From a virus: 64,000 bases of DNA. Positions 6,938-57,887 of the stretch are shown one piece after another. How positions within the stretch are numbered: position 1 is the first letter of the stretch; every line of letters starts with the position of its first letter. The notes below the pieces were generated by a model. That model was not told the DNA's origin, made no database searches, and worked only from the letters and a program-made list of their open reading frames with translations. Location of the stretch: the IMG/VR virus record IMGVR_UViG_3300022848_000777, positions 1 to 64,000 of that record. One strand, 5' to 3'. Made by a program: the position numbers and the translations under genes.

Positions 6938-7774
6938 ATGAATAAACCTATAAAAAGTATAAATCAATTAATAAAAGATGAGTACACTAAATGTGCAGCT
7001 GATCCAGTATATTTCTTTAAGAAATATTGTTATATCCAACATCCAACACGTGGGAAGATTTTATTCGATACCTTCGATTTCCAAGATGAAACTTTAGAAG
7101 ATTTTAATAATTTCAGATTTAATGTGATATTAAAATCAAGACAGTTGGGTATATCAACACTAACAGCAGGTTACGCATTATGGTTAATGTTATTTAAAGA
7201 AGATCAAAATATATTGGTTATAGCAACAACTCAAGATGTGGCCAAAAACCTTATCACTAAGGTTAAGTATATGCATGATAACTGCCCTAGTTGGTTGAGG
7301 TTAGATACTGAGGAAGCAAACAAACTATCATTAAGATTTGTAAATGGTTCAACAATTAAAGCCGTATCAAGTACAGGAACAGCGGGTCGATCAGAGGCAC
7401 TATCATTATTGATCATTGATGAGGCTGCATTTATTCAAAAAGTAGATGATATTTGGGCTTCTGCACAATCTACACTTTCCACTGGGGGTAGTGCTATCGT
7501 ACTTTCCACACCAAATGGTGTTGATAACTTCTTTCATAGCACATGGTTAAAATCAGAAGAGGGTGCCGCATGGAATGGAATACGATTGCATTGGACTAGG
7601 CATCCAGAAAGAAATCAAAAATGGAGAGATGAGCAATCCGCATTGCTTGGTGATGCAATGGCAGCTCAGGAATGTGATTGTTTGTGGGGGGAATCTATGG
7701 TTACGGTACGTGATACTGAAACGGAAAATATCATAAACGTATCACTTTCAGATTTGTATAATAATTTATATTAA
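6938..7774 (+). CDS. terL: Terminase large subunit, N-terminal ATPase part fused to a 31-aa split-intein N fragment
   Basis: KSRQLGIST (Walker A), LIIDEAAF (Walker B), STPNG. Ends QECD|CLWGESMVTVRD...LYNNLY*, with intein Cys1 at 7679. Confidence 0.95.
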   Translation: MNKPIKSINQLIKDEYTKCAADPVYFFKKYCYIQHPTRGKILFDTFDFQDETLEDFNNFRFNVILKSRQLGISTLTAGYALWLMLFKEDQNILVIATTQDVAKNLITKVKYMHDNCPSWLRLDTEEANKLSLRFVNGSTIKAVSSTGTAGRSEALSLLIIDEAAFIQKVDDIWASAQSTLSTGGSAIVLSTPNGVDNFFHSTWLKSEEGAAWNGIRLHWTRHPERNQKWRDEQSALLGDAMAAQECDCLWGESMVTVRDTETENIINVSLSDLYNNLY

Positions 7775-7777
7775 TTA

Positions 7778-7785
7778 TACTTATA
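7778..7785 (+). promoter_or_regulatory. Late-type promoter motif TACTTATA before the terL endonuclease
   Basis: Member of the TA(T/C)TTATA family (about 18 intergenic copies). Confidence 0.65.
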
Positions 7786-7808
7786 TACAAGAGTGTGAAT
7801 GTAAACGG

Positions 7809-8552
7809 ATGTTATATATGGGGTATGTAAAAGATGGGTGGGATAAAATTAAAGATGAATTATCAAATATTGATGAGTTTTATACCATTAAGCAAACTAT
7901 ACATTTATTAAATACGGATTATTATTATAAAAATTATTTTGGTAGGGCTAGGAATCGCACTATGATAAAACGTAATCCTAAATTATACAAGTCCATATAT
8001 GAACATACTGATATTTTAGAAACGACATTTAAAAAATATAATAAATACAAAGGTTGGTATAATTTCAAATACCGTATGGTATTTTTAGTTGATAATGGTG
8101 GTGATATTAACACTTTAAAGTGTGAGTGTGGTCGTACATATAATTGGACTAAATATTGTAGATTCTGCCCAAATCCTAAAAAAACATGGTTGGGTAAAAC
8201 ACATACAGATGTAACTAAAAAAATACAACGAATAAGTACTTTACAATACTTATCAAAAACCAATGGTCAATTAACACCTAGATATAATATCAATTCAATA
8301 CCAATCATAGAAGCAAAAGCTAAAGAATTAGGAATAACTGATTTACAGCATGCCGAAAATGGTGGAGAATTCCACATCAAAGATCTTGGTTATTGGGTGG
8401 ATGGTTATAGTAAAGAAAAAAACATAGTAATAGAATATGATGAACGTCATCATTTCAGAAATGATAAGATAAAAGTGAAAGATATTCAAAGACAAAACGA
8501 AATCGAAACCCATCTTAATTGTAAATTTATAAGGATACGTTGTAATGGATAA
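7809..8552 (+). mobile_element. Free-standing homing endonuclease (Vsr/EDxHD-like PD-(D/E)xK fold) inside fractured terL
   Basis: QHAENGGE..VDGY..IVIEYDERHH..D..RQ..I...L.C.FIRI. Lies between the intein halves; paralog of 54188..55015. Confidence 0.85.
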
Positions 8553-9732
8553 TCATATATTAAGACATAATCATAAATATGAAATACTAACACCATCGGG
8601 ATATCAATCATTCGCTGGGATTCGTAAGATCTCTAAAGATGTAATATACACCATTATATTATCTAATAATAAAACAATAAAATGTTCAGATAATCACCCA
8701 TTTATTATTAACACTGATATTATCCATTCCAATAAATTAAAAGTTGGTGATATATTAGATGGTGTTGATGATACCATAATTACGATTGTTGATATTAAGA
8801 AAACGATGGGAACTTTGAATTTATTTGATGTCGTTGATGTTAATGGTGGTAATTTATTTAATGTTGATGGTATAATTTCACATAATTGTGATTTCATCAC
8901 ATCGGGTTATGGTGTTGTCGATGGTTCTATATTGGAGTGGTATAAAGAGAATCATGTTGTAGATCCATTAGAAGAACGTGGTTTCGATGGTAATTATTGG
9001 TTGTGGAAATATCCAGATTATGATAAAAATTACATCGTTGTGGCCGATGTCGCGCGAGGTGATGGTAAGGATTTTTCAACATTCCATGTTTTCGATGTAG
9101 AAACTGTAGAGCAGGTTGCTGAATACAAAGGTAAGATAGAAACAAAACCTTTTGGTGAGATGTTAGTGGCCGTCGCTATTGAGTGGAATAATGCAATGTT
9201 GGTAATAGAAAACGCCAATGTTGGTTGGGCTGCGATACAACCCGCAATCGATAGACATTATGAAAACCTATATTATTCATATAAAGATTTTGGATATGTT
9301 GATGATGAAGTTCATCTACAAAGTGCCTATGATATGGCAGATAAATCCAAAATGGTTCCTGGATTCTCAATGACAACTAGGACACGACCTTTGGTTATAT
9401 CAAAACTTGATACATATATGAGAGAAAAAGTGCCGATAATTCACTCAATTAGACTTATAAATGAATTATTTGTATTTGTTTGGATGGGTTCTAAGGCAAT
9501 TGCTCGTAATGGGCATAATGATGATTTAGTAATGGCATTTTCTACAGCTTTATGGGTGAGGGATACCGCACTTAGACTTAGACAAAAGGGTATTGATTTA
9601 AATAGAAGTGCAATACAACATACTACAAAATCAAATACATTCTATAGTAACACCCAACGAGCTCAATCCGACAAGTACTGGAATATGAATATAGGTGGAA
9701 AGCATAGTGAAAATATAAAATGGTTGCTGTAA
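8545..9732 (+). CDS. terL: Split-intein C fragment (114 aa) plus terminase large subunit nuclease part
   Basis: CSDNHPF (block B) and ISHN|CDFITSG (Asn ends 8886, Cys+1 at 8887), then ADVARGDGKDFS and HNDDLVMA nuclease motifs. Confidence 0.95.
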   Translation: MDNHILRHNHKYEILTPSGYQSFAGIRKISKDVIYTIILSNNKTIKCSDNHPFIINTDIIHSNKLKVGDILDGVDDTIITIVDIKKTMGTLNLFDVVDVNGGNLFNVDGIISHNCDFITSGYGVVDGSILEWYKENHVVDPLEERGFDGNYWLWKYPDYDKNYIVVADVARGDGKDFSTFHVFDVETVEQVAEYKGKIETKPFGEMLVAVAIEWNNAMLVIENANVGWAAIQPAIDRHYENLYYSYKDFGYVDDEVHLQSAYDMADKSKMVPGFSMTTRTRPLVISKLDTYMREKVPIIHSIRLINELFVFVWMGSKAIARNGHNDDLVMAFSTALWVRDTALRLRQKGIDLNRSAIQHTTKSNTFYSNTQRAQSDKYWNMNIGGKHSENIKWLL

Positions 9733-27728: not shown

Positions 27729-28607
27729 ATGAAAGATGAATTACAAGATGAATACGTTAATACTATGACCGATGCTGAAATGGTTGATATGGCTAAAAGT
27801 AAAAATCAAATCGGTCAAGTTTTAGATTATAAGTTTCCTACTGAGATAGTAGAACTACCATCAAATGGATTAATATATTCATTAGACAACCCATTATCAT
27901 CGGGTAAAGTTGAAATGAAGTATATGACTGCTAAAGAAGAAGATATACTTACTACACAATCTTATATAAGAGATGGTAGTGTATTGGATAGATTATTCCA
28001 ATCACTTATAGTTTCTAATGGTGAGGGTAAGTTGGTTAAATATGTTGATTTGGTAGTAGGTGATAAGAACGCAATTATGATCGCATCTAGAATATTAGGA
28101 TATGGGAAGGATTATGAAGTAGAAATTGATGATCCATTTTCAACAGATACAAAGCAAAAAGAAATTATTGATTTAACATCTTTTGATAATAAAGTATATG
28201 ATGGAAATCACCAAACTGAATTAAATAAAAATGAATTTGAGTTCAAACTACCAAAATCCAATCGTTTGATAACGTTTATGGCATTAACTGAGAGCAAAGA
28301 GCGAAAAATTAAACATGAATTGGAAGTTATTTTGAAAGCAAATAGAAAGTTAAACGATAAAACTTCTAGAGAACTCACAACAAGATTAAAAACAATTATA
28401 CTATCAGTGGATGGTGAGATTGATCAGAAATTTATAAATGAATTTGTGAATAACGAACTTTTCGCAGTAGATTCTAAGGCCCTTAGATCCTACATTAACG
28501 AAGTAACACCTGACATTGATTTGGCTTGGGAGTTTATTTCTGATGAAACGGGCCAAGGGAGGTCAATGACTCTTCCTATGGGGGTCGGGTTTTTTTGGCC
28601 TGAATAA
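27729..28607 (+). CDS. Baseplate hub assembly/tail chaperone (gp26-like)
   Basis: VELPSNG..Y, MTAKEEDIL, GDKNAIMIASRILGYG motifs; ends FFWP. Confidence 0.75.
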   Translation: MKDELQDEYVNTMTDAEMVDMAKSKNQIGQVLDYKFPTEIVELPSNGLIYSLDNPLSSGKVEMKYMTAKEEDILTTQSYIRDGSVLDRLFQSLIVSNGEGKLVKYVDLVVGDKNAIMIASRILGYGKDYEVEIDDPFSTDTKQKEIIDLTSFDNKVYDGNHQTELNKNEFEFKLPKSNRLITFMALTESKERKIKHELEVILKANRKLNDKTSRELTTRLKTIILSVDGEIDQKFINEFVNNELFAVDSKALRSYINEVTPDIDLAWEFISDETGQGRSMTLPMGVGFFWPE

Positions 28608-28794
28608 ATCACATCGCCAATTAATTCATTCGCAATTATTTGATTTGATATATCACGGTAATGGTGGATTTACATTTCAAGATGTTTATAATTTACCTAT
28701 TTGGGCTCGACAATTCTACATAAAAAAGATAGTTGAGTTTAAAGAAGCTCAGAACAAAAAAGAACAATCTGAACTTAAACGTGCAAGAAAATAA
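28591..28794 (+). CDS. ATG-less +1-frame extension (gp51-like), probably reached by frameshift
   Basis: FFGLNKSHRQLIHSQLFDLIYHGNGGFTFQDVYNLPIWARQFYIKKI...; joins the upstream gene at T7 (28590-28596). Confidence 0.7.
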   Translation, partial: FFGLNKSHRQLIHSQLFDLIYHGNGGFTFQDVYNLPIWARQFYIKKIVEFKEAQNKKEQSELKRARK

Positions 28795-45109: not shown

Positions 45110-46420
45110 ATGGATACATTCGGAAAGAGATTTGGTTCAAGTTTCCAAATAAAAATTCTATCAGCATTATTATCAGATAGGATATTTTTACAGACTATTT
45201 ATGATATTATAAAAGATGATTATTTCGATTCTGATGCAAATCAATGGATTTTAAGTAAAATATTAACCCACTTTGATAAATACAAACAAATACCAACCTT
45301 AGATGTATTTAAAACGGAATCAGATGCACTTAGTTCTGATATTCTAAGACAATCTGTATCAGATAACCTTAGAAATGTATGGGGTGGATTAGAATCCACT
45401 GAGTTAGAATACATAAAAGAGCAATCACTAGAGTTTTGTAAGAATCAGGAAGTTAAAAATGCTATCCTTGAATCGGTAGGTTTGCTTGAGAGTGGTAACT
45501 ACGAAGAAATTCAATCTAAAATAACCGCAGCTATGAAGGCTGGGCAGGATACTGATATCGGGCATGAGTATAATATTAGTATTGATGAACGTTATGCCGA
45601 TAGTGTTAGGAATGTAATTACAACAGGATGGCCTGCAATTGATGAATTAGTAGATGGTGGTTTCGGAAAAGGTGAATTAATTATCTTCGCAGCACCGCCA
45701 GGAATTGGTAAATCATGGGCTCTTATTAATGTGGGTATGGCTGCTGTCAGAGCTGGAAAAACGGTGGTACATTATACTTTAGAGTTAAACGAGGGATATG
45801 TTGGTCAGAGATATGATGCTGTGTTAACTAATATGGCAGTTACTAATTTGAAATATAACATAGATGATGTTAAATCTAGTATTAAAGAATTATCAGGTGA
45901 GCTTATAATAAAATATTGGCCCACAAAATCAGCATCCGTTAATTCCGTAAGGGCATCGGTTGATAAGCTCATATTACAAGGAAAGAAGCCTGATATCATT
46001 ATAGTTGATTATGCAGATTTACTTAAAGGCAATTCGAAGCGAGAGAAGCATGAAGAAATTGAAGAAGTAGTTGAGGAACTTAGAGGTTTGGCAGGGGAGT
46101 ATGAAGTACCATTATATACAGCATCTCAAATAAATCGTTGTCATAATGTAAATGATAACGTGGAAACTCCAACTGGTGATAAAAGGATTGGTGATGTGGA
46201 GATTGGAGACCAAATATTAACACATAAGGGATTTAAGAAAATAACAAATGTATTCCCAATTGAACGACAACCAACCTATCGTATTAAGCTTAAAGATGGT
46301 AGAGAGATAAATGTTTCAGCAGAACATATGATACCAACCCAATACAACAAAATAAAATCCATAGCAGATGGACTTTCAGTAGGTGAGAAATTATTTGTAA
46401 AAAAGAGTGGAAAAAAGTAA
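45110..46420 (+). CDS. gp41: Replicative helicase (gp41/DnaB), N part plus 93-aa split-intein N fragment
   Basis: APPGIGKS, TLEL, VDYADLL, ASQINR|CHNVND. Intein Cys1 at 46139; VSAEH is block B. Confidence 0.95.
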   Translation: MDTFGKRFGSSFQIKILSALLSDRIFLQTIYDIIKDDYFDSDANQWILSKILTHFDKYKQIPTLDVFKTESDALSSDILRQSVSDNLRNVWGGLESTELEYIKEQSLEFCKNQEVKNAILESVGLLESGNYEEIQSKITAAMKAGQDTDIGHEYNISIDERYADSVRNVITTGWPAIDELVDGGFGKGELIIFAAPPGIGKSWALINVGMAAVRAGKTVVHYTLELNEGYVGQRYDAVLTNMAVTNLKYNIDDVKSSIKELSGELIIKYWPTKSASVNSVRASVDKLILQGKKPDIIIVDYADLLKGNSKREKHEEIEEVVEELRGLAGEYEVPLYTASQINRCHNVNDNVETPTGDKRIGDVEIGDQILTHKGFKKITNVFPIERQPTYRIKLKDGREINVSAEHMIPTQYNKIKSIADGLSVGEKLFVKKSGKK

Positions 46421-46440
46421 GGTTTTGCCATGCAGTTATA

Positions 46441-46448
46441 TACTTATA
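46441..46448 (+). promoter_or_regulatory. Late-type promoter motif TACTTATA before the helicase endonuclease
   Basis: Followed by AAAAGGA and ATG 46464. Confidence 0.65.
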
Positions 46449-46463
46449 TAAAAAGGATATAAT

Positions 46464-47555
46464 ATGGCATCAGTAAAGCAAGCTTGGATAACTAGATACG
46501 GAGAAGGGGAAGGTCTTCGTATGTGGGAAATACAAAAAAAGAAATATGGTAAAACACATGATGAATTGAGAACGAAACACGGTAATGATTACGTTGAATC
46601 GTTAGCAAAGAAGAAAAATACATTTTCATTAAAAGGGTGTATTGCCAAATATGGAAAAGTTGATGGTGCTGTTAAGTGGAATGATAGATTAAAAACCAAG
46701 TTAAAAACACAATCTGTTAATTTTAAAAACAAAAAATGGAATAATGGTAGAACCTTAGAATCATATCAACTTAGATACGGGGTAGCGGATGGTTACAGTA
46801 GGTGGGATAAACGGAATAAGCATCAATCCTATATGGCATCAACTCAACGTTATTTGGATGAATTTGGTGAAGATGGGTATGATATAATAAGAAAGATAAA
46901 AGATAACACATCTTTAGAGGCGTATCAAATTCAATACGGTGATGTAGATGGTTTAGTTCATTATAATAAGCACGTTGAACTGATGAAGAACGCATCAAAG
47001 AGGTGTATTGATTATTGGTTAACGTACCATAATGGTGATATTGAGTTAGCAACGCAATCGTTATCAGAGTATCAGAATAATACATCGTTATCATCATTTA
47101 CAAAACGATATGGTAAAGAAGTTGGGTTAGTTAAATATTTAAAATGGGTTGAGGCGGTAACAAAGTATGGATATAAAAGTTATAGTAAGATATCACAGAC
47201 ATTCTGTTGGAATTTGTATGATTCGCTAAATTTATCAATAAATGATACACAATTTTATGAATTAAATAATGAACAATCATTCTACTTTGGTAATAAGTTG
47301 ATTAAGGTTGATTTTAAGTATAAACAAAAGATTATAGAATTCAATGGTGATTATTGGCATGCAAATCCTAATCTGTATAGTGAATCTGATATGATAAAGG
47401 AATATACCGCTAGTGAAATATGGCATCGTGATTCCAATAGAATTGATTTATTAGAAAAAGCTGGTTATGATGTCTTAGTTGTATGGGAATCGGAGTATAA
47501 TGCGAATGGGAGTGATATCATAAACAAATGTAAAAAGTTTTTAGAAAATGAATAA
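46464..47555 (+). mobile_element. Free-standing homing endonuclease (Vsr/EDxHD-like) inside the fractured helicase
   Basis: N-terminal (R/K)YG...G...W repeats. C-terminal VDF...IIEFNGDYWH...D..R......GY.VLVVWESE. Confidence 0.85.
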
Positions 47556-48018
47556 ACATAATTTAAATCCAGATGATTTTGATTTGGTCGAAATTGAGAG
47601 TATTGAGCTAATCGGCGATTCAGATACTATTGATATTACCGTAGAGGATACACATATGTTCTTCGCTAATGGGGTATATAGTCATAATTCAGGCGCAGAT
47701 GATGATATTATTACAGGTACCAAAATAGCAGGTTCATTCTCAAAACTTATGACTGCTGATTTTGTAGTTTCACTGAGTAGAAAAATTGAAGATAAGTTAG
47801 CAGGTACGGGTCGATGGCATGTTATAAAGAACCGTTTCGGGCCCGATGGTACTACATTACCATCCAAAGCTAATATGTCCAGCGGTAAAATAGAGATATT
47901 TTCAGATAATTCAGTTGATGGTCAAAATACAAAAAAAGATATGAAAGAGGGGGAGACTTTTGTTAGACAGAATTTATTTCAAAAGTATAAAGAAATTAAC
48001 AACAAAGTTAACTTTTAA
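47548..48018 (+). CDS. gp41: Split-intein C fragment (47 aa) plus helicase C part
   Basis: IESIE..G..DTIDITV...HMFFANGVYSHN|SGADDD (Asn ends 47688), then TADF and KNRFG motifs. Confidence 0.95.
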   Translation: MNKHNLNPDDFDLVEIESIELIGDSDTIDITVEDTHMFFANGVYSHNSGADDDIITGTKIAGSFSKLMTADFVVSLSRKIEDKLAGTGRWHVIKNRFGPDGTTLPSKANMSSGKIEIFSDNSVDGQNTKKDMKEGETFVRQNLFQKYKEINNKVNF

Positions 48019-51151: not shown

Positions 51152-51355
51152 ATGGCACTTCGTGGAGAGCAGCATCCTCAACATAAACTAACGGCAAAGC
51201 AAGTAATATCCATTAGAAAGTTGTGGAGAATTGGACATAGGAATCTCAAAGTAATTGCTAGAAACAACGGAGTTACTACTTCTAATATCCGTAGGATTGT
51301 TAGAAACGAGACATGGGTTCATTTGACATTTGGGAAATTTGATGATTATCAATAA
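51152..51355 (+). CDS. Small HTH protein resembling the DNA-binding tail of HNH homing endonucleases
   Basis: RGE.HP..KLT...V..IR......IA...GV....I..IV....W.H pattern. Confidence 0.65.
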   Translation: MALRGEQHPQHKLTAKQVISIRKLWRIGHRNLKVIARNNGVTTSNIRRIVRNETWVHLTFGKFDDYQ

Positions 51356-52152
51356 TGAAAGAAAATAAATTATATGTTGATATTAGCAGGGTGCATATTG
51401 CACCTATTGCTAAATCAATAGCTAAGAGTATTATCATAAAAAAACATTACAGCCACTCATGGACTGCTTGTAGGTATTCATTGGGAATTTATTATAAAAC
51501 AGAAGATGACTCACAATTCGGTGATAGTAAGTTAATTGGGTGTCTTATATATGGATTTCCAGTGGGTTCCAGGGCAGCCACATCTATTTGTGATGGATTG
51601 ACAAAGGATAACGCATTGGAGTTGACCAGATTGTATATAGATGATGGTTACGGTTCTAATATAGAATCATATGCAATGGGTCAGAGTTTTAAATGGTTAA
51701 AAGAACATGATAAGAATATCAAACTACTTTTATCATATGCAGATACGGAGCAAAATCACTTAGGTTCAATCTATCAAGCTACTAATTGGGTATATCAAGG
51801 TACTAATGATATGATAGCACTCATGCCAACTTATGGAATATCATTATCAAACGATCCTTATAATTGGATTCATAGTAGAACTGTATATTCACTTTGGGGT
51901 TCTAGTAACGTAGAACATTTGAAAAAAGAAATTGGTAAACAAGGTCATACCGTATTCTGGAGAAAAATGGAATCACCAAAACATCGGTACATCCAACTGA
52001 TATCACAGAATAAAAAAGAAAAGCGTGAATTGATGAAAAAGTTGAAACATAAAATTTATCCATATCCGAAAAACGCAAGTGATTTTAATAAAGAAATAAC
52101 AACACATACGACATACGAACCTGATTCGGATTTAGAAACTAAATTTTGGTAA
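51355..52152 (+). CDS. Mom-like GNAT-fold DNA modification protein
   Basis: HYSH, ELTRL, N.ES and SYAD..Q.H.G.IYQATNW.Y.G motifs. Confidence 0.75.
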   Translation: MKENKLYVDISRVHIAPIAKSIAKSIIIKKHYSHSWTACRYSLGIYYKTEDDSQFGDSKLIGCLIYGFPVGSRAATSICDGLTKDNALELTRLYIDDGYGSNIESYAMGQSFKWLKEHDKNIKLLLSYADTEQNHLGSIYQATNWVYQGTNDMIALMPTYGISLSNDPYNWIHSRTVYSLWGSSNVEHLKKEIGKQGHTVFWRKMESPKHRYIQLISQNKKEKRELMKKLKHKIYPYPKNASDFNKEITTHTTYEPDSDLETKFW

Positions 52153-52196: not shown

Positions 52197-54149
52197 ATGG
52201 CATATCAGAACGTATTTTATGATAGTGATACTAGAATAATTCATTCATGGGATGATGTTCTTGGTTACGAAACGAGTAAGTATTCACCATATGCATACGT
52301 AAGAGATGGTAATGGTGCGCATACTTCAATATATGGTGATAGGGTTAAGAAAGTAACCTATTGGAAAGATTACAATCCTAATGATCTATTTGAATCTGAT
52401 GTAAATGAAATTACTAGATTTCTAATAGATAAGTATGGGGAATCTGATGAAGTATCTAAAAATCATTGTACACTTACATTTGATATTGAGGTAGAAATGA
52501 ATTCAGGTTTACCCGATACCACTAAAGCTGAAAATGAAGTAACTGCAATAGCATTTCACGATTCTATAACAAATGACAAAGGTGTTTATGTAGTTCATAC
52601 GGGTAAAGAAATTGATAGGAAAATAAAAGGTGCTAATGTAAAATCCTTTAACACTGAGGCTGATATGCTATCTGCATTTTTAAATAAATGGGTAGATATA
52701 TCGCCAACAATAGTGACGGGTTGGAATATTGATTACTTTGATGTTACATATCTTTACAACCGATTGTGTAATGTATTCTCAACGACTGAGGCTAACAGAT
52801 TGTCACCAATTGGTAAAATAAAGTATAATAAATATAGAAAACGTTACCTTATAGCAGGTGTATCTTGTTTAGATTATATGGCATTGTTTAAAAACTTCAC
52901 ATACACAGAACACCCGAATTATAGACTTGATACTATAGCAACTTTAGAGTTAGGTCGTGGTAAGATTGAATATGATGGTAACTTAGATCAATTATTCAGA
53001 GATGATATTGAAAAGTTTATTGAATATAACCTAGTCGATGTTGAGTTGGTTGTTGATTTAGATAAGAAGTTACAGTTTATTGATTTGGCAAGGGCAATAT
53101 GCCACACAGGCCATGTTGCTTATGAGGATTTTCTTTTCTCTTCAAAGTGGTTAGAGGGGGCTATGCTCACATTTCTACGTAGAAGTGGTAGGGTTGCACC
53201 GAATAAACCCAATAGAGTTTCACTAAAGATAAACTCAGGTAAAAAAGGTGAAAATCGAATCTATTTAGAGAATTTACCGAATCTAACACCCCGATCAGGG
53301 AAACTAAAGATTTGGAAATCGAAATCATCTAAGATATCAGTAGAGTATGATGATATTGATTTCTCTACCAATTCATTTATATTGAAGCACCCATTAAAGG
53401 AAACCTTAAAAAAAGAATGGATACTTAAACTTGATTTTGAGGGGGCTTATGTAAAAGAACCAAAACCAGGACTATATAAATGGGTATATGATTTAGATTT
53501 AACATCAATATATCCCTGTATCATTATGACTATTAACATATCACCCGAAACTCAAGTGGGTAATATAACAAATTATTCCACAGAGGCTTATATGCGGCAT
53601 GATATTTCTAAGTTTGAAATAACAGATATTCATGGTAATATATCAGATCCGATGGATAGGGTTGAGTATGATGCATTCATTACAAAGATGAATCTAAGTG
53701 TAGCTGCTAATGGTACATTATACGACCAAAGTAAAGTTGGTATAATTCCTGAAATTTTGAATGTTTGGTTCGACAAGAGAGTTGAATATAAAGATTTGAT
53801 GAAGAAGTTCGGAAAAGCAGGTGATGATGATAAGTATAAATTTTACAATCAACGGCAATCCGTGCAGAAGATTATGCTCAATTCCCTTTATGGTGTACTT
53901 GGTTTGGAGTCATTTAGATTCTATAATGTGAAAAACGCGGAAGCGGTAACACTTACAGGGCAGACTGTAATTAAAACCACTGAGTTAATAGCTAATAATT
54001 ATTATAATAGTGTAACGGGCGATGCTTATGTAATTCAATTAGAAAATGGTGAAACTGTTAGTATGGGTGGTAATCTACCTGTTACGTTAACTAATGGAAT
54101 GATAAAGAAAGTTTCAGAATTAACAGAAGAAGATGATGTTTTATTATAA
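52197..54149 (+). CDS. polB: Family-B DNA polymerase, N part (exonuclease, motifs A and B), ending in a degenerate intein-like segment
   Basis: FDIEV, GWN...FD, YNLVDV, DLTSIYP and KIMLNSLYG motifs. Lacks YxDTDS. Tail 54024-54146 is Hint-like. Confidence 0.95.
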   Translation: MAYQNVFYDSDTRIIHSWDDVLGYETSKYSPYAYVRDGNGAHTSIYGDRVKKVTYWKDYNPNDLFESDVNEITRFLIDKYGESDEVSKNHCTLTFDIEVEMNSGLPDTTKAENEVTAIAFHDSITNDKGVYVVHTGKEIDRKIKGANVKSFNTEADMLSAFLNKWVDISPTIVTGWNIDYFDVTYLYNRLCNVFSTTEANRLSPIGKIKYNKYRKRYLIAGVSCLDYMALFKNFTYTEHPNYRLDTIATLELGRGKIEYDGNLDQLFRDDIEKFIEYNLVDVELVVDLDKKLQFIDLARAICHTGHVAYEDFLFSSKWLEGAMLTFLRRSGRVAPNKPNRVSLKINSGKKGENRIYLENLPNLTPRSGKLKIWKSKSSKISVEYDDIDFSTNSFILKHPLKETLKKEWILKLDFEGAYVKEPKPGLYKWVYDLDLTSIYPCIIMTINISPETQVGNITNYSTEAYMRHDISKFEITDIHGNISDPMDRVEYDAFITKMNLSVAANGTLYDQSKVGIIPEILNVWFDKRVEYKDLMKKFGKAGDDDKYKFYNQRQSVQKIMLNSLYGVLGLESFRFYNVKNAEAVTLTGQTVIKTTELIANNYYNSVTGDAYVIQLENGETVSMGGNLPVTLTNGMIKKVSELTEEDDVLL

Positions 54150-54187: not shown

Positions 54188-55015
54188 ATGATTGAATGTA
54201 AAATATGTAATAAGAAGTATAACACCATCACAGCAACTCATTTAAAGACACATGGTATTAGTATGGCAGATTATCGAACTAAATTTCCCAATGTACCAAT
54301 CCAATCAGATGGGATGATTCAGAGGGGAGTTCACTCATTAGAAAATATGATACGAAGGCATGGTGATGTTCAAGGTAATATTAGATGGGAAGATTATAAA
54401 CAAAAACAGGCGTATACGAATACATTTGAATACAAACGTGATATTTGTGGTTGGGATGAGGATCAGTTCAATGCGTATAATAAAAAGAGAGGTAGTTTTG
54501 GTGAGTTGAATGGTAATCATGGGTCATCGTATTATCAGATTTGGATTGAAAAGTATGGTAGAGATGTGGCAGATGATATGAATTTTCAGTTATCTAAACG
54601 TAAAGCTAGACATGGTGAAGATAATGGTAACTATAAGAGATCAAAAAGACCTGATGAACTGAAACGAATGAGTGTATCTGCAATAGAGCGTGTAAAACGT
54701 AATGGGATGCCACATTCATATAATCCAAATTCAATTCCAATTATAGAACGGTATGGGTTGGATAATGGATATACATTTCAGCATGCTGAAAATGGTGGTG
54801 AGTATCAAATACCAGATAATACGTTTTTTGTAGATGGGTATGATAGATCAAATAATGTAGTGATTGAATATGATGAACAACGACATTTTAGAAACGGAGA
54901 ATTGCATCCAAAAGATATATGGAGAATGAACTTGATTATATCGAAATTAAAGTGTGTGTTTGTAAGAATCGATTATAAGGGCAATATAACAAAATATGAA
55001 AATAAAAACAATTAA
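54188..55015 (+). mobile_element. Free-standing homing endonuclease (Vsr/EDxHD-like) inside fractured polB
   Basis: N-terminal CxxC...HL..H zinc finger. C-terminal QHAENGGE..VDGYD..VVIEYDE..H; paralog of 7809..8552. Confidence 0.85.
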
Positions 55016-55909
55016 AAAAACAAACGTCGGCGTAGATTACAACATCTACGTCGACACGTAACTGATTCAGTATTTTATGAAGCAGCTCCATTGGTTAAGG
55101 CTAGAAATCCTAAAATCGATGTTAATTCTGATGAAGAAATGATACCTGCCATTCTTAGTGTTGCAAAAGAAGTGCAAGATCACATCAATAAAACATATGA
55201 TGTGATGGCTAAATCCATGTTTAATACCAGTAACCATAGATTTGACATAAAGCAAGAAACAATCGCAAAGGGTGGATTTTGGGTATCTAAAAAACGATAC
55301 GCTCAGTGGATTATAAATGATAACTCTGTTAATTGTGATAAGTTGGATGTAAAGGGGTTAGATGTAAAACGAAGTTCATTTCCTGTATACTTTAAGGAAG
55401 TGATGTCTGAAATATTATGGTCTATTCTAAAAGATGATGCGAAATTGAACATCGATAAAAAGATATTAGATTATAAAGATGGTATGGAAAATTACTACTA
55501 TGTTGATATTGCAAAGAATTCAGCAATTACGGATATGAGTAAGCATTTATTTAAAAACCAAGCTCTTGGTGAGTTTCAAAAGGGAACACCCGCTCACGTT
55601 AAAGCAGCAATAACTTATAATCAATTATTAAAAAAGTTCAATACTGCTTTTAAATACGAACCAATTAAAGATGGTGATAAGGTTAAATGGGTGTATTTAA
55701 AGAATAATCCATTGGGATTGAATGGGGTTGCATTGAATGGGTATAATGATCCTGATGAAATAATTGAGTTCATTAAAACCTACATAGATTTCGAATTAAT
55801 TTGGGAAAAAGAACTTCAAAATAAATTAGATGATTTCTATGATGCAATGAAATGGGATTTACCAAACCCAAACTTAGATAAAGCAGCAGAGTTTTTCGAC
55901 TTTAATTAG
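54996..55909 (+). CDS. polB: Family-B DNA polymerase, C part (motif C, thumb), with a 5-nt frame break inside YVDTDS
   Basis: ATG 54996 gives MKIKTIKKTNVGVDYNIYVDT* (TAA 55059-61). The other frame from 55061 gives TDSVFYEAAPL...KKRYA...KGLD..RSS. The ORF-track start at 55091 omits the catalytic motif. Confidence 0.85.
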
Positions 55910-56675: not shown

Positions 56676-57887
56676 ATGGAGTTTTGGGATAGTACGCCAG
56701 ACAAACCTGAGTTTGTTTTTGAAGATCAAAAGAGGTTGTTAATTGAGAATATGGATTACTTATCCACTATGACGGTAGAGGAACAAACTCTATACAAAAA
56801 GTGGGTAGAGTTGCAAGAGGAAGTAATGATGGTTAATAAATCTCATATTACTGAATTATACGATTCACAATGGAATCCTACTGACATCAATGACGTTGAA
56901 CAAACGGTAAAAGAAATTGAAAATATTGATCCGTATGTTCAAATCGTAGATGATCCGAATGATTCAACTCAATGGTCTTATCTTAGAAAAATGATTCATT
57001 CTATGAGTTTTGTAGCAAATCCAGGCCGCAACGTTAAAGTTAATGTAAAGGATAGGGTTAGTGGTAAACTGTTAGGTCAGATATCATTAGCATCTGATGT
57101 TACTTCAATGGCGGCACGGGATAATTACATAGGGTGGACACGTGATGATCGGTTTAAGAAAGGTAAGTTAAACCACACATCTATAGCATCAACTATAGTA
57201 TGTACTCAACCGTTGGGTTATAACTTTTTGGGTGGTAAACTTATCGCAGCTATGGCTACTGTTTCAGAGATTCGTGATTATTGGAAATCTAATTACGGTC
57301 AAACTTTGATAGCAGTGGGTACTACATCTCTATATGGAATACATTCGCAGTATAATGGTATACCACATTTCAAAACAGTTGGGGAATCTGCAGGTAAGAT
57401 ATCAATTAAACCTGATGATAAGTTCTACGATCCGTGGCATCAGTGGTTAAAAGAAAACCATAGTGAGTGGTATGAGACAAATATAACCGAAGAAAGAGCA
57501 CGTAATGGTGAAAGTATGGGTTATGATCGAAATGGGCCTGTGAGTGGTATTAAACAAAAGATACTATCAAAAATACTTAAAGAGTGTGGTATCAAACAAT
57601 CTGAATATCATCATGGATTTCATAGGGGGGTGTATTTGGCAATGATGTATGATAATGGGAATGAATTTCTTTGTGATACAATCAATGAAGATGATTTGGT
57701 AATGAAGAAGAAGTTTATCGAAGGTATTGATTATATTACTAAATGGTGGAAGCCAAAAGCAATACGCAGATATAAGAAATTACATTCAGAGGGTAGATTG
57801 AAACCAGATCATCTATTTTATGGTGATGGTATTGGAAAGGATTGGGAGACATTTAAAAAAGAACGGTTAAAAGAAATAGGTAGATGA
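56676..57887 (+). CDS. DUF4338/DruA-like protein
   Basis: PGRN, G.I.L.SD, RD.YIGW, P.G.N.LGGKL.A and TTSLYG..SQY motifs. Confidence 0.65.
   Translation: MEFWDSTPDKPEFVFEDQKRLLIENMDYLSTMTVEEQTLYKKWVELQEEVMMVNKSHITELYDSQWNPTDINDVEQTVKEIENIDPYVQIVDDPNDSTQWSYLRKMIHSMSFVANPGRNVKVNVKDRVSGKLLGQISLASDVTSMAARDNYIGWTRDDRFKKGKLNHTSIASTIVCTQPLGYNFLGGKLIAAMATVSEIRDYWKSNYGQTLIAVGTTSLYGIHSQYNGIPHFKTVGESAGKISIKPDDKFYDPWHQWLKENHSEWYETNITEERARNGESMGYDRNGPVSGIKQKILSKILKECGIKQSEYHHGFHRGVYLAMMYDNGNEFLCDTINEDDLVMKKKFIEGIDYITKWWKPKAIRRYKKLHSEGRLKPDHLFYGDGIGKDWETFKKERLKEIGR

Follow-up and report, generated by a model that had tools for sequence, protein, structure and literature searches.

Organization of the split polB locus

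The DNA analysed here (the window) comprises the first 64 kb of a record, 174,750 bases in length, of an uncultured phage (33% G+C), whose sequence is present in salt-lake metagenomes and whose completeness is estimated at 90%. The record encodes a T4-like major head protein, 27 tRNAs and a phage tmRNA (the latter two at genome positions 130937-139810). Its family-B DNA polymerase gene, polB, is divided into an N-half gene and a C-half gene with a putative endonuclease gene between them, all on the forward strand. The N-half gene (52197-54149) encodes a protein of 650 aa with the exonuclease domain and polymerase motifs A and B (Pfam PF03104, E 3e-25; PF00136, E 2e-29). The C-half reading frame (55064-55909; PF00136, E 7e-10) runs from DSVF to a stop codon and has no start codon ahead of motif C. 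The C-half is up to 77% identical to intact relatives, and the closest polymerase of a cultured phage is 48% identical. Comparison of the C-half with that of L001 gives a dN of 0.17 and a dS of about 3, and across the relatives dN ranges from 0.03 to 0.30 and dS from 0.47 to saturation, which indicates purifying selection. Apart from the polB halves, the record, estimated to be 90% complete, gave no match to a further family-B polymerase, and the break between leader and C-half falls in the catalytic motif of the sole DNA polymerase found in this phage. A Mom-family gene (51355-52152) and a DruA-like gene (56676-57887) flank polB and the sliding clamp gene in the window.

The second gene of the split polB starts with a short leader ORF (54996-55061), a point not stated in the first-pass annotation of this DNA. 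The leader has 21 codons, beginning with the ATG at 54996 (MKIKTIKK...YVDT), and ends in TAA; 13 residues that resemble the C-part of an intein are followed by the polymerase residues DYNIYVDT, and the same leader is present in all split relatives. In L116, one of these, the polB N-half is separated from the leader by three small unrelated ORFs (L116:473-1205), and the halves are fully separate genes. The last sense codon of the leader, ACG (Thr, 55056-55058), is the putative take-off codon of a translational hop, the stop codon TAA follows it directly (55059-55061), and the putative landing triplet is ACT (55061-55063). A frame beginning with TDSVF at 55061 runs open for 282 codons and closes with a stop at 55909. 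Removal of five nucleotides restores the D-T-D-S motif at the catalytic site of the polymerase, and the break is located at the pol-c intein site, YGD/TDS (PMC549080). The first-pass annotation had read the leader, its stop, both Thr triplets, the resumed frame and the coincidence with the pol-c position in the same way, and our coordinates agree with it throughout.

The phage encodes a tRNA-Thr(UGU). Among Logan contigs at the break, X1 is identical to the window but is possibly its source, and a piece of X11 that spans the break with only 15 letters on the 5' side was not counted. Neither an Rfam match nor a terminator was found in the junction region, and a genome-wide scan detected no second hop of the same design.

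Short-gap, long-gap and gap-less relatives

Nearly all of the 80 closest viral loci carry an intact gene; one of them, L053, has the same split, with a different endonuclease and the junction ACG TG ACA. Short-gap loci were gathered by pattern scans, one with all eight junction bases free, and by protein searches with contig look-ups; the metagenome and protein searches that yielded them left the junction letters unfixed. A pattern scan of GTDB gave chance matches only. The resulting 21 short-gap loci, which are related to one another and hence do not provide independent counts, have 19 different junctions, and in every one of them a Thr codon (ACN) is directly followed by a stop codon (TGA in 10, TAA in eight and TAG in three). 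The hop would cover 5 nt in 15 loci, 6 nt in three and 7 nt in three (L208 among them), so that all three frames are represented.

The first Thr codon is invariant, whereas the triplet before the catalytic Asp (ACN in 14/21, ATN in five, GCT and TCA in one each) drifts to ATG, ATT, ATA, GCT and TCA, as would be expected if this triplet were re-paired but not decoded. Matching of the take-off and landing codons, as claimed in the first-pass annotation, holds for the first two bases in 14 of the 21 short-gap loci and three of the four long-gap loci, but the third base is seldom matched and seven short-gap loci differ at position 1 or 2. Six of these seven mismatches are G-U compatible, but they are also the transition mutants. 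The take-off codon is ACG or ACC in 17/21 short-gap loci, as against 19% in the genome and 20/74 intact genes, and this excess may reflect weaker pairing with tRNA-Thr(UGU). ACA, though the commonest Thr codon in the genome, is the rarest at take-off (1/21).

The long-gap class comprises L218, L151, L252 and L211, with gaps of 41, 42, 42 and 43 nt, respectively; a dedicated long-gap scan found only L252, already in the set. The long gaps hold an in-frame stop codon, a second GC-rich hairpin and an A-rich stretch, with a G-run 7-13 nt ahead of the landing. Here the codon after the Asp varies freely, and the far end of the gap reads GAT (once TAC) and then a Thr codon. Matched Asp codons flank the gap in three of the four loci, and the presumed Asp take-off codon is followed by a sense codon and not by a stop. 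A matched hop would again restore D-T-D in this class.

In 21 further relatives the leader is fused in frame to DTDS, which corresponds to the predicted product of the hop. The intact, fused, short-gap and long-gap forms are intermixed on a tree of the C-halves, with several gap/fused sister pairs, and the gap is thus gained or lost repeatedly or moves by recombination; the tree was built by a quick method with SH-aLRT support only, omits identical and near-identical rows, and does not give the order of events.

A covarying hairpin abuts the putative take-off codon

A 12-bp RNA hairpin (55026-55055; arms 55026-55037 and 55044-55055) ends at the Asp codon preceding the take-off codon, which it abuts and which is unpaired in the fold of the window. 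The 6-nt loop and single G-U pair described in the first-pass annotation are present, and the hairpin has a folding energy of -20.2 kcal/mol with a z-score of -4.8, none of 200 shuffled sequences being as good. The C-ending codons that form it are as unusual as had been remarked, GTC, GGC and GAC accounting for 5%, 5% and 7% of synonymous use in the genome. Among 1614 ORF-closing stops in the genome, it is the sole compact 12-bp stem that ends 3 nt before a stop and is followed by a long open frame.

Folding of the 70 nt that end at the first Asp codon gave the hairpin in all 24 gap loci scored (-17 kcal/mol or lower) and in none of 76 gap-less loci (-12.5 kcal/mol or higher), the latter including the three split, gap-less loci for which DNA was available. 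Relatives with the same hairpin and an intact frame, which had been named in the first-pass annotation as one of the findings that would speak against a hop, are thus absent from this set. In 21 distinct arm pairs, 244 of 252 arm positions are paired and seven of the 12 positions change on both sides, residues of the 5' arm changing so that the pairs are kept; shuffling of the arms gave at most 232 paired positions in 2000 trials. The 5' arm was picked as the best partner, a choice that favours pairing and that gives at most 10/12 pairs in gap-less genes. The loop is 6 nt long in one subgroup and 21-27 nt in another, where it often has an extra stem. Elsewhere in the window (28550-28610), a 13-bp stem near a T run ends 2 nt before the stop of the ORF 27729-28607.

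Probable translational bypassing and alternative explanations

Sequence and comparison establish that the gene is split and that stop, gap and hairpin are present and conserved together, and we consider it very probable that programmed short-distance translational bypassing builds the C-subunit of the polymerase. The proposal of a 5-nt Thr-to-Thr stop-hop helped by a 5' hairpin, the core of the first-pass annotation, is supported in that relatives keep the gap and the hairpin covaries. A ribosome would start at 54996, translate 21 codons and pause with TAA in the A site while peptidyl-tRNA-Thr is paired with ACG. The 3' arm of the hairpin, lying in the mRNA exit path, would then re-pair with the 5' arm and pull the mRNA through, the tRNA would detach and re-pair 5 nt downstream at ACU, and decoding would resume at GAT 55064, the catalytic Asp codon, to give leader-YVDTDSVF. 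Terminating ribosomes would release a peptide of 21 aa. A single rule would restore D-T-D in all classes, namely that the P-site tRNA detaches from the codon at the base of the hairpin and pairs again with a similar triplet just before the resume codon. The change of conserved triplet from the short to the long class is as expected from this rule, and the fact that any of the three stop codons can serve places the event at translation. The idea of a push by re-forming mRNA structure is taken over from work on T4 gene 60 (10.1101/2024.12.09.627546; PMC5009743); both stop-hops and propulsion by a stem-loop on the 5' side have been established with synthetic constructs and T4 gene 60 (PMC5009743; 10.1101/2024.12.09.627546). 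The push model is not geometrically proven here, as a 5-nt move would leave part of the 12-nt arm inside the ribosome.

In the most serious alternative, the leader would simply terminate and the C-half reinitiate at a codon overlapping the stop, as in ATGA-type junctions, resulting in a three-chain enzyme broken at the turn of motif C. The 5-nt geometry is that of a stop-start overlap, and ATG, GTG or TTG is found at the junction in 8/21 short-gap loci: L141 has ATG, four loci have GTG and L137 has TTG, while in L108 and L214, as in the long-gap L151, an ATG adjoins the catalytic Asp. A hairpin over an initiation region is typical of translational coupling. However, no ATG, GTG or TTG is present in the last four codons of the resumed frame in 13/21 short-gap loci, including the window (GTA), and the three 7-nt loci have no start codon at all, so that reinitiation cannot be the general mechanism. 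The take-off codon that would give ATG is ACA, the rarest of all, and the retention of both Thr-like triplets, or of both Asp codons in the long class, is left unexplained. We regard reinitiation as improbable on these grounds, though it may operate in some lineages. The best case is L151, which combines a good ATG (MYTDS) with a mismatched landing triplet. In this long-gap variant (L151:3870-4010) the landing Asp codon is now TAC and the in-frame ATG gives MYTDS, making it a candidate for a switch from bypass to a three-chain polymerase. The N-half ORF of L151, with 996 aa, probably has another insert inside.

A still smaller likelihood attaches to excision at the RNA level, in which a nuclease would recognize the hairpin and cut the gap from the mRNA and an RNA ligase would seal the ends. 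The phage encodes the RNA ligase RtcB (genome positions 87184-88569; PF01139, E 6e-36), and gap removal in any of several registers would restore D-T-D. The sole invariant of the short gaps, though, is an in-frame stop of any kind, a feature relevant to ribosomes and not to a nuclease, and the gaps of 5-7 and 41-43 nt have neither a common sequence nor an Rfam match. RtcB, the tRNAs and the tmRNA could also allow the phage to influence the handling of ribosomes stalled at the leader stop.

We see almost no room for a plain -1 frameshift, or for readthrough at the 6-nt loci, that leaves the motif functional but two residues longer, for example as DTVTDS: 5-nt and 6-nt loci would alike be expected to give a two-residue insertion, but a slippery sequence is missing, gaps of 7 nt and of 41-43 nt are not accounted for, no other part of PolB is as conserved as this motif (PMC549080), and no sense-codon insertion is found there in the intact or fused relatives retrieved, the apparent case P0114 being a TAG read as Gln. 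Just as negligible is an assembly error or a dead pseudogene; the sequences do come from metagenome assemblies, but the design recurs in many unrelated samples with diverged sequence, a covarying hairpin and purifying selection on the C-half, the ACN-stop-ACN design is present in phages whose synonymous sites are near saturation with respect to the window phage, and no other PolB was found in the genome.

Intein remnants and the neighbouring putative endonuclease

The N-half protein ends in a tail of 42 aa (54021-54146) that appears to be a remnant of the second half of an intein N-part; it is kept in 18 split loci and missing from intact relatives. A profile of the 18 tails matches the block-B region of true inteins (E 1e-10 to 1e-6), and a match to residues 77-118 of the structure with PDB identifier 2lcj has an E-value of 0.021. 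A region-restricted protein search with the tail found the window's own protein only. The first 13 residues of the leader resemble, by eye only, the first strand of an intein C-half. The N-terminal Cys/Ser with block A, the block-B TxxH and the C-terminal His-Asn before the nucleophile are missing from the 18 tails and from all leaders, so the remnants cannot splice. The basic leader start MKIKTIKK, earlier taken for a nascent-peptide signal like that of T4, is read here as this remnant strand and gives no evidence for such a signal, since a similar start occurs in 21 gap-less relatives. SVTGD was considered as the start of a Ser1 intein and was rejected, because it aligns with polymerase residues of intact relatives.

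Strands of split inteins are salt-bridged (PMC2677866), and we infer that the remnants hold the polymerase halves together non-covalently, the C-subunit binding the N-half through both of them with no protein splicing. Complex prediction for the tail with a fused leader gave no clear answer (score 0.19), and a single-chain model of tail plus leader (pLDDT 60) had no informative fold match. The proteins P0158, P0164 and P0202, whose upstream motifs are like those of family A polymerases, end in tails that resemble the polB remnant and are also devoid of TxxH. A join by dead half-inteins may, judging from these tails, recur in other split enzymes.

The ORF between the halves (54188-55015) encodes a free-standing putative homing endonuclease of 275 aa with Vsr-like motifs, and overlaps the leader by 20 nt. 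It has no match to a curated family above the cut-off and was assigned by motif only, the Vsr-like motifs having been recognized on visual inspection and from similarity to the two other inserts in the genome. Its C-terminal domain is 54% identical to that of the ORF that splits the terminase gene. In relatives, the same position is occupied by a GIY-YIG endonuclease or by none. The terminase and helicase genes of the window are likewise fractured around endonuclease genes (6938-9732 and 45110-48018); their intein halves retain the splicing residues, with weak Intein_splicing matches, and the terminase is split near its N-terminus.

Comparison with known systems

As in T4 gene 60 and its homologues in MobA cassettes, an essential replication gene is split beside a homing endonuclease gene (10.1101/2022.08.31.505936; PMC5009743). 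Further likenesses to T4 gene 60 are a stop after the take-off codon, a matched landing codon, a stem-loop 5' of take-off and a patchy spread among related phages. The polB gap, however, is 5-7 nt long and involves Thr or Asp, as against a gap of ~50 nt and Gly in T4 gene 60. The polB element also lacks a take-off stem-loop that contains the take-off codon on its 5' side as well as an SD-like motif ~6 nt before the landing, a position occupied by the 3' arm of the hairpin, its leader has only 21-30 codons, and its host gene is polB, at the pol-c intein site. Thus, the polB element would function in the manner of T4 gene 60 bypassing without belonging to that element, and no homology is implied.

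In size, the element comes closest to synthetic stop-hops and to the gaps of the Hau3 terminase gene. Synthetic 'stop-hops' in E. coli (Weiss 1987, as described in PMC5009743 and 10.1101/2024.12.09.627546) likewise have matched codons flanking a stop, with +5 and +6 hops, but are low-level and unprogrammed, whereas the polB hop appears to be natural, needed for an essential enzyme and equipped with a conserved stimulator. No natural in-frame stop hopping was known according to a 2016 review (PMC5009743), and L108, L213 and L217 are candidates for it. The terminase bypass of Streptomyces phage Hau3 shares short (7-10 nt) coding gaps in a phage and a 5' stem-loop, and there, too, conservation at the junction rules out simple frameshifting; the trigger in Hau3 is a hungry codon, UUA, with host-stage sensing proposed, unlike the true stop codon of polB (PMC10732093). 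The byps of Magnusiomyces mitochondria (27-55 nt) are also disruptive inserts corrected by bypassing with relaxed codon matching, and the 41-43-nt polB class is similar to them in size (10.1101/2022.08.31.505936; PMC5009743). The byps differ in their use of mitochondrial ribosomes and unused sense codons and in affecting many genes, while in polB bacterial ribosomes would act at a single site, with a hairpin located in the coding sequence upstream.

The arrangement of an N-half, a free-standing endonuclease and an overlapping C-half with intein-derived ends is that of fractured genes that carry split inteins and endonucleases of the Vsr-like or GIY-YIG kind (Dassa 2009, PMC2677866), of which the terminase and helicase genes are two ordinary cases in the same genome. 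In polB, unlike the loci of that study, the intein parts are devoid of splicing residues and lie ~10 residues upstream of the pol-c site; that study describes no bypass in the fractured loci (PMC2677866). A description of a polB hop element was not found in the literature covered, most of which lies outside subscription journals.

Possible origin and significance of the gap

Close relatives gain or lose the gap repeatedly, and the gap is accordingly most likely a selfish insert that is tolerated at the pol-c site (PMC549080), as judged from its distribution, and not a needed regulator or an immunity device. Gaps are found with no endonuclease gene (L081, L141, L151, L216-L218) and a gap-less split gene is found with one (L219), a pattern that favours a tolerated insert over an immunity device and gives no support to the earlier suggestion of removal of the endonuclease target as the maintained function.

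Natural programmed bypassing is known from very few settings, viz., T4 gene 60 and its homologues, the byps of yeast mitochondria and the Streptomyces phage, and whether re-folding of mRNA at the ribosome exit suffices for the forward push is still argued from the complex T4 case. The polB element is compact, with leader, hairpin, stop and landing codon in about 70 nt, and its natural variants amount to a mutational series, in which gap length (5, 6, 7 and 41-43 nt), the kind of stop codon (all three) and the landing (matched or wobble) vary and gap-less loci serve as controls, so that the push model can be tested directly. We lean towards the view that these loci represent a natural family of minimal bypass elements that is widespread. 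In them, a single hairpin on the exit side and a stop would suffice for efficient hops of 5-7 nt, in-frame stop-hops among them, and a sister class at the same site would hop 41-43 nt with two hairpins. Such elements would be gained and lost at the active-site motif of the polymerase of a whole phage group, the enzyme being held together by a dead half-intein, and polymerase output may depend on the levels of release factor or tRNA-Thr. The design also accounts for the truncation of these polymerases by gene callers, with loss of the catalytic motif, and suggests that some apparent stop-codon readthrough may be hopping. In L213 (P0114), the gene caller took the bypass stop TAG as Gln; such hops are open to being misread as a reassigned genetic code.
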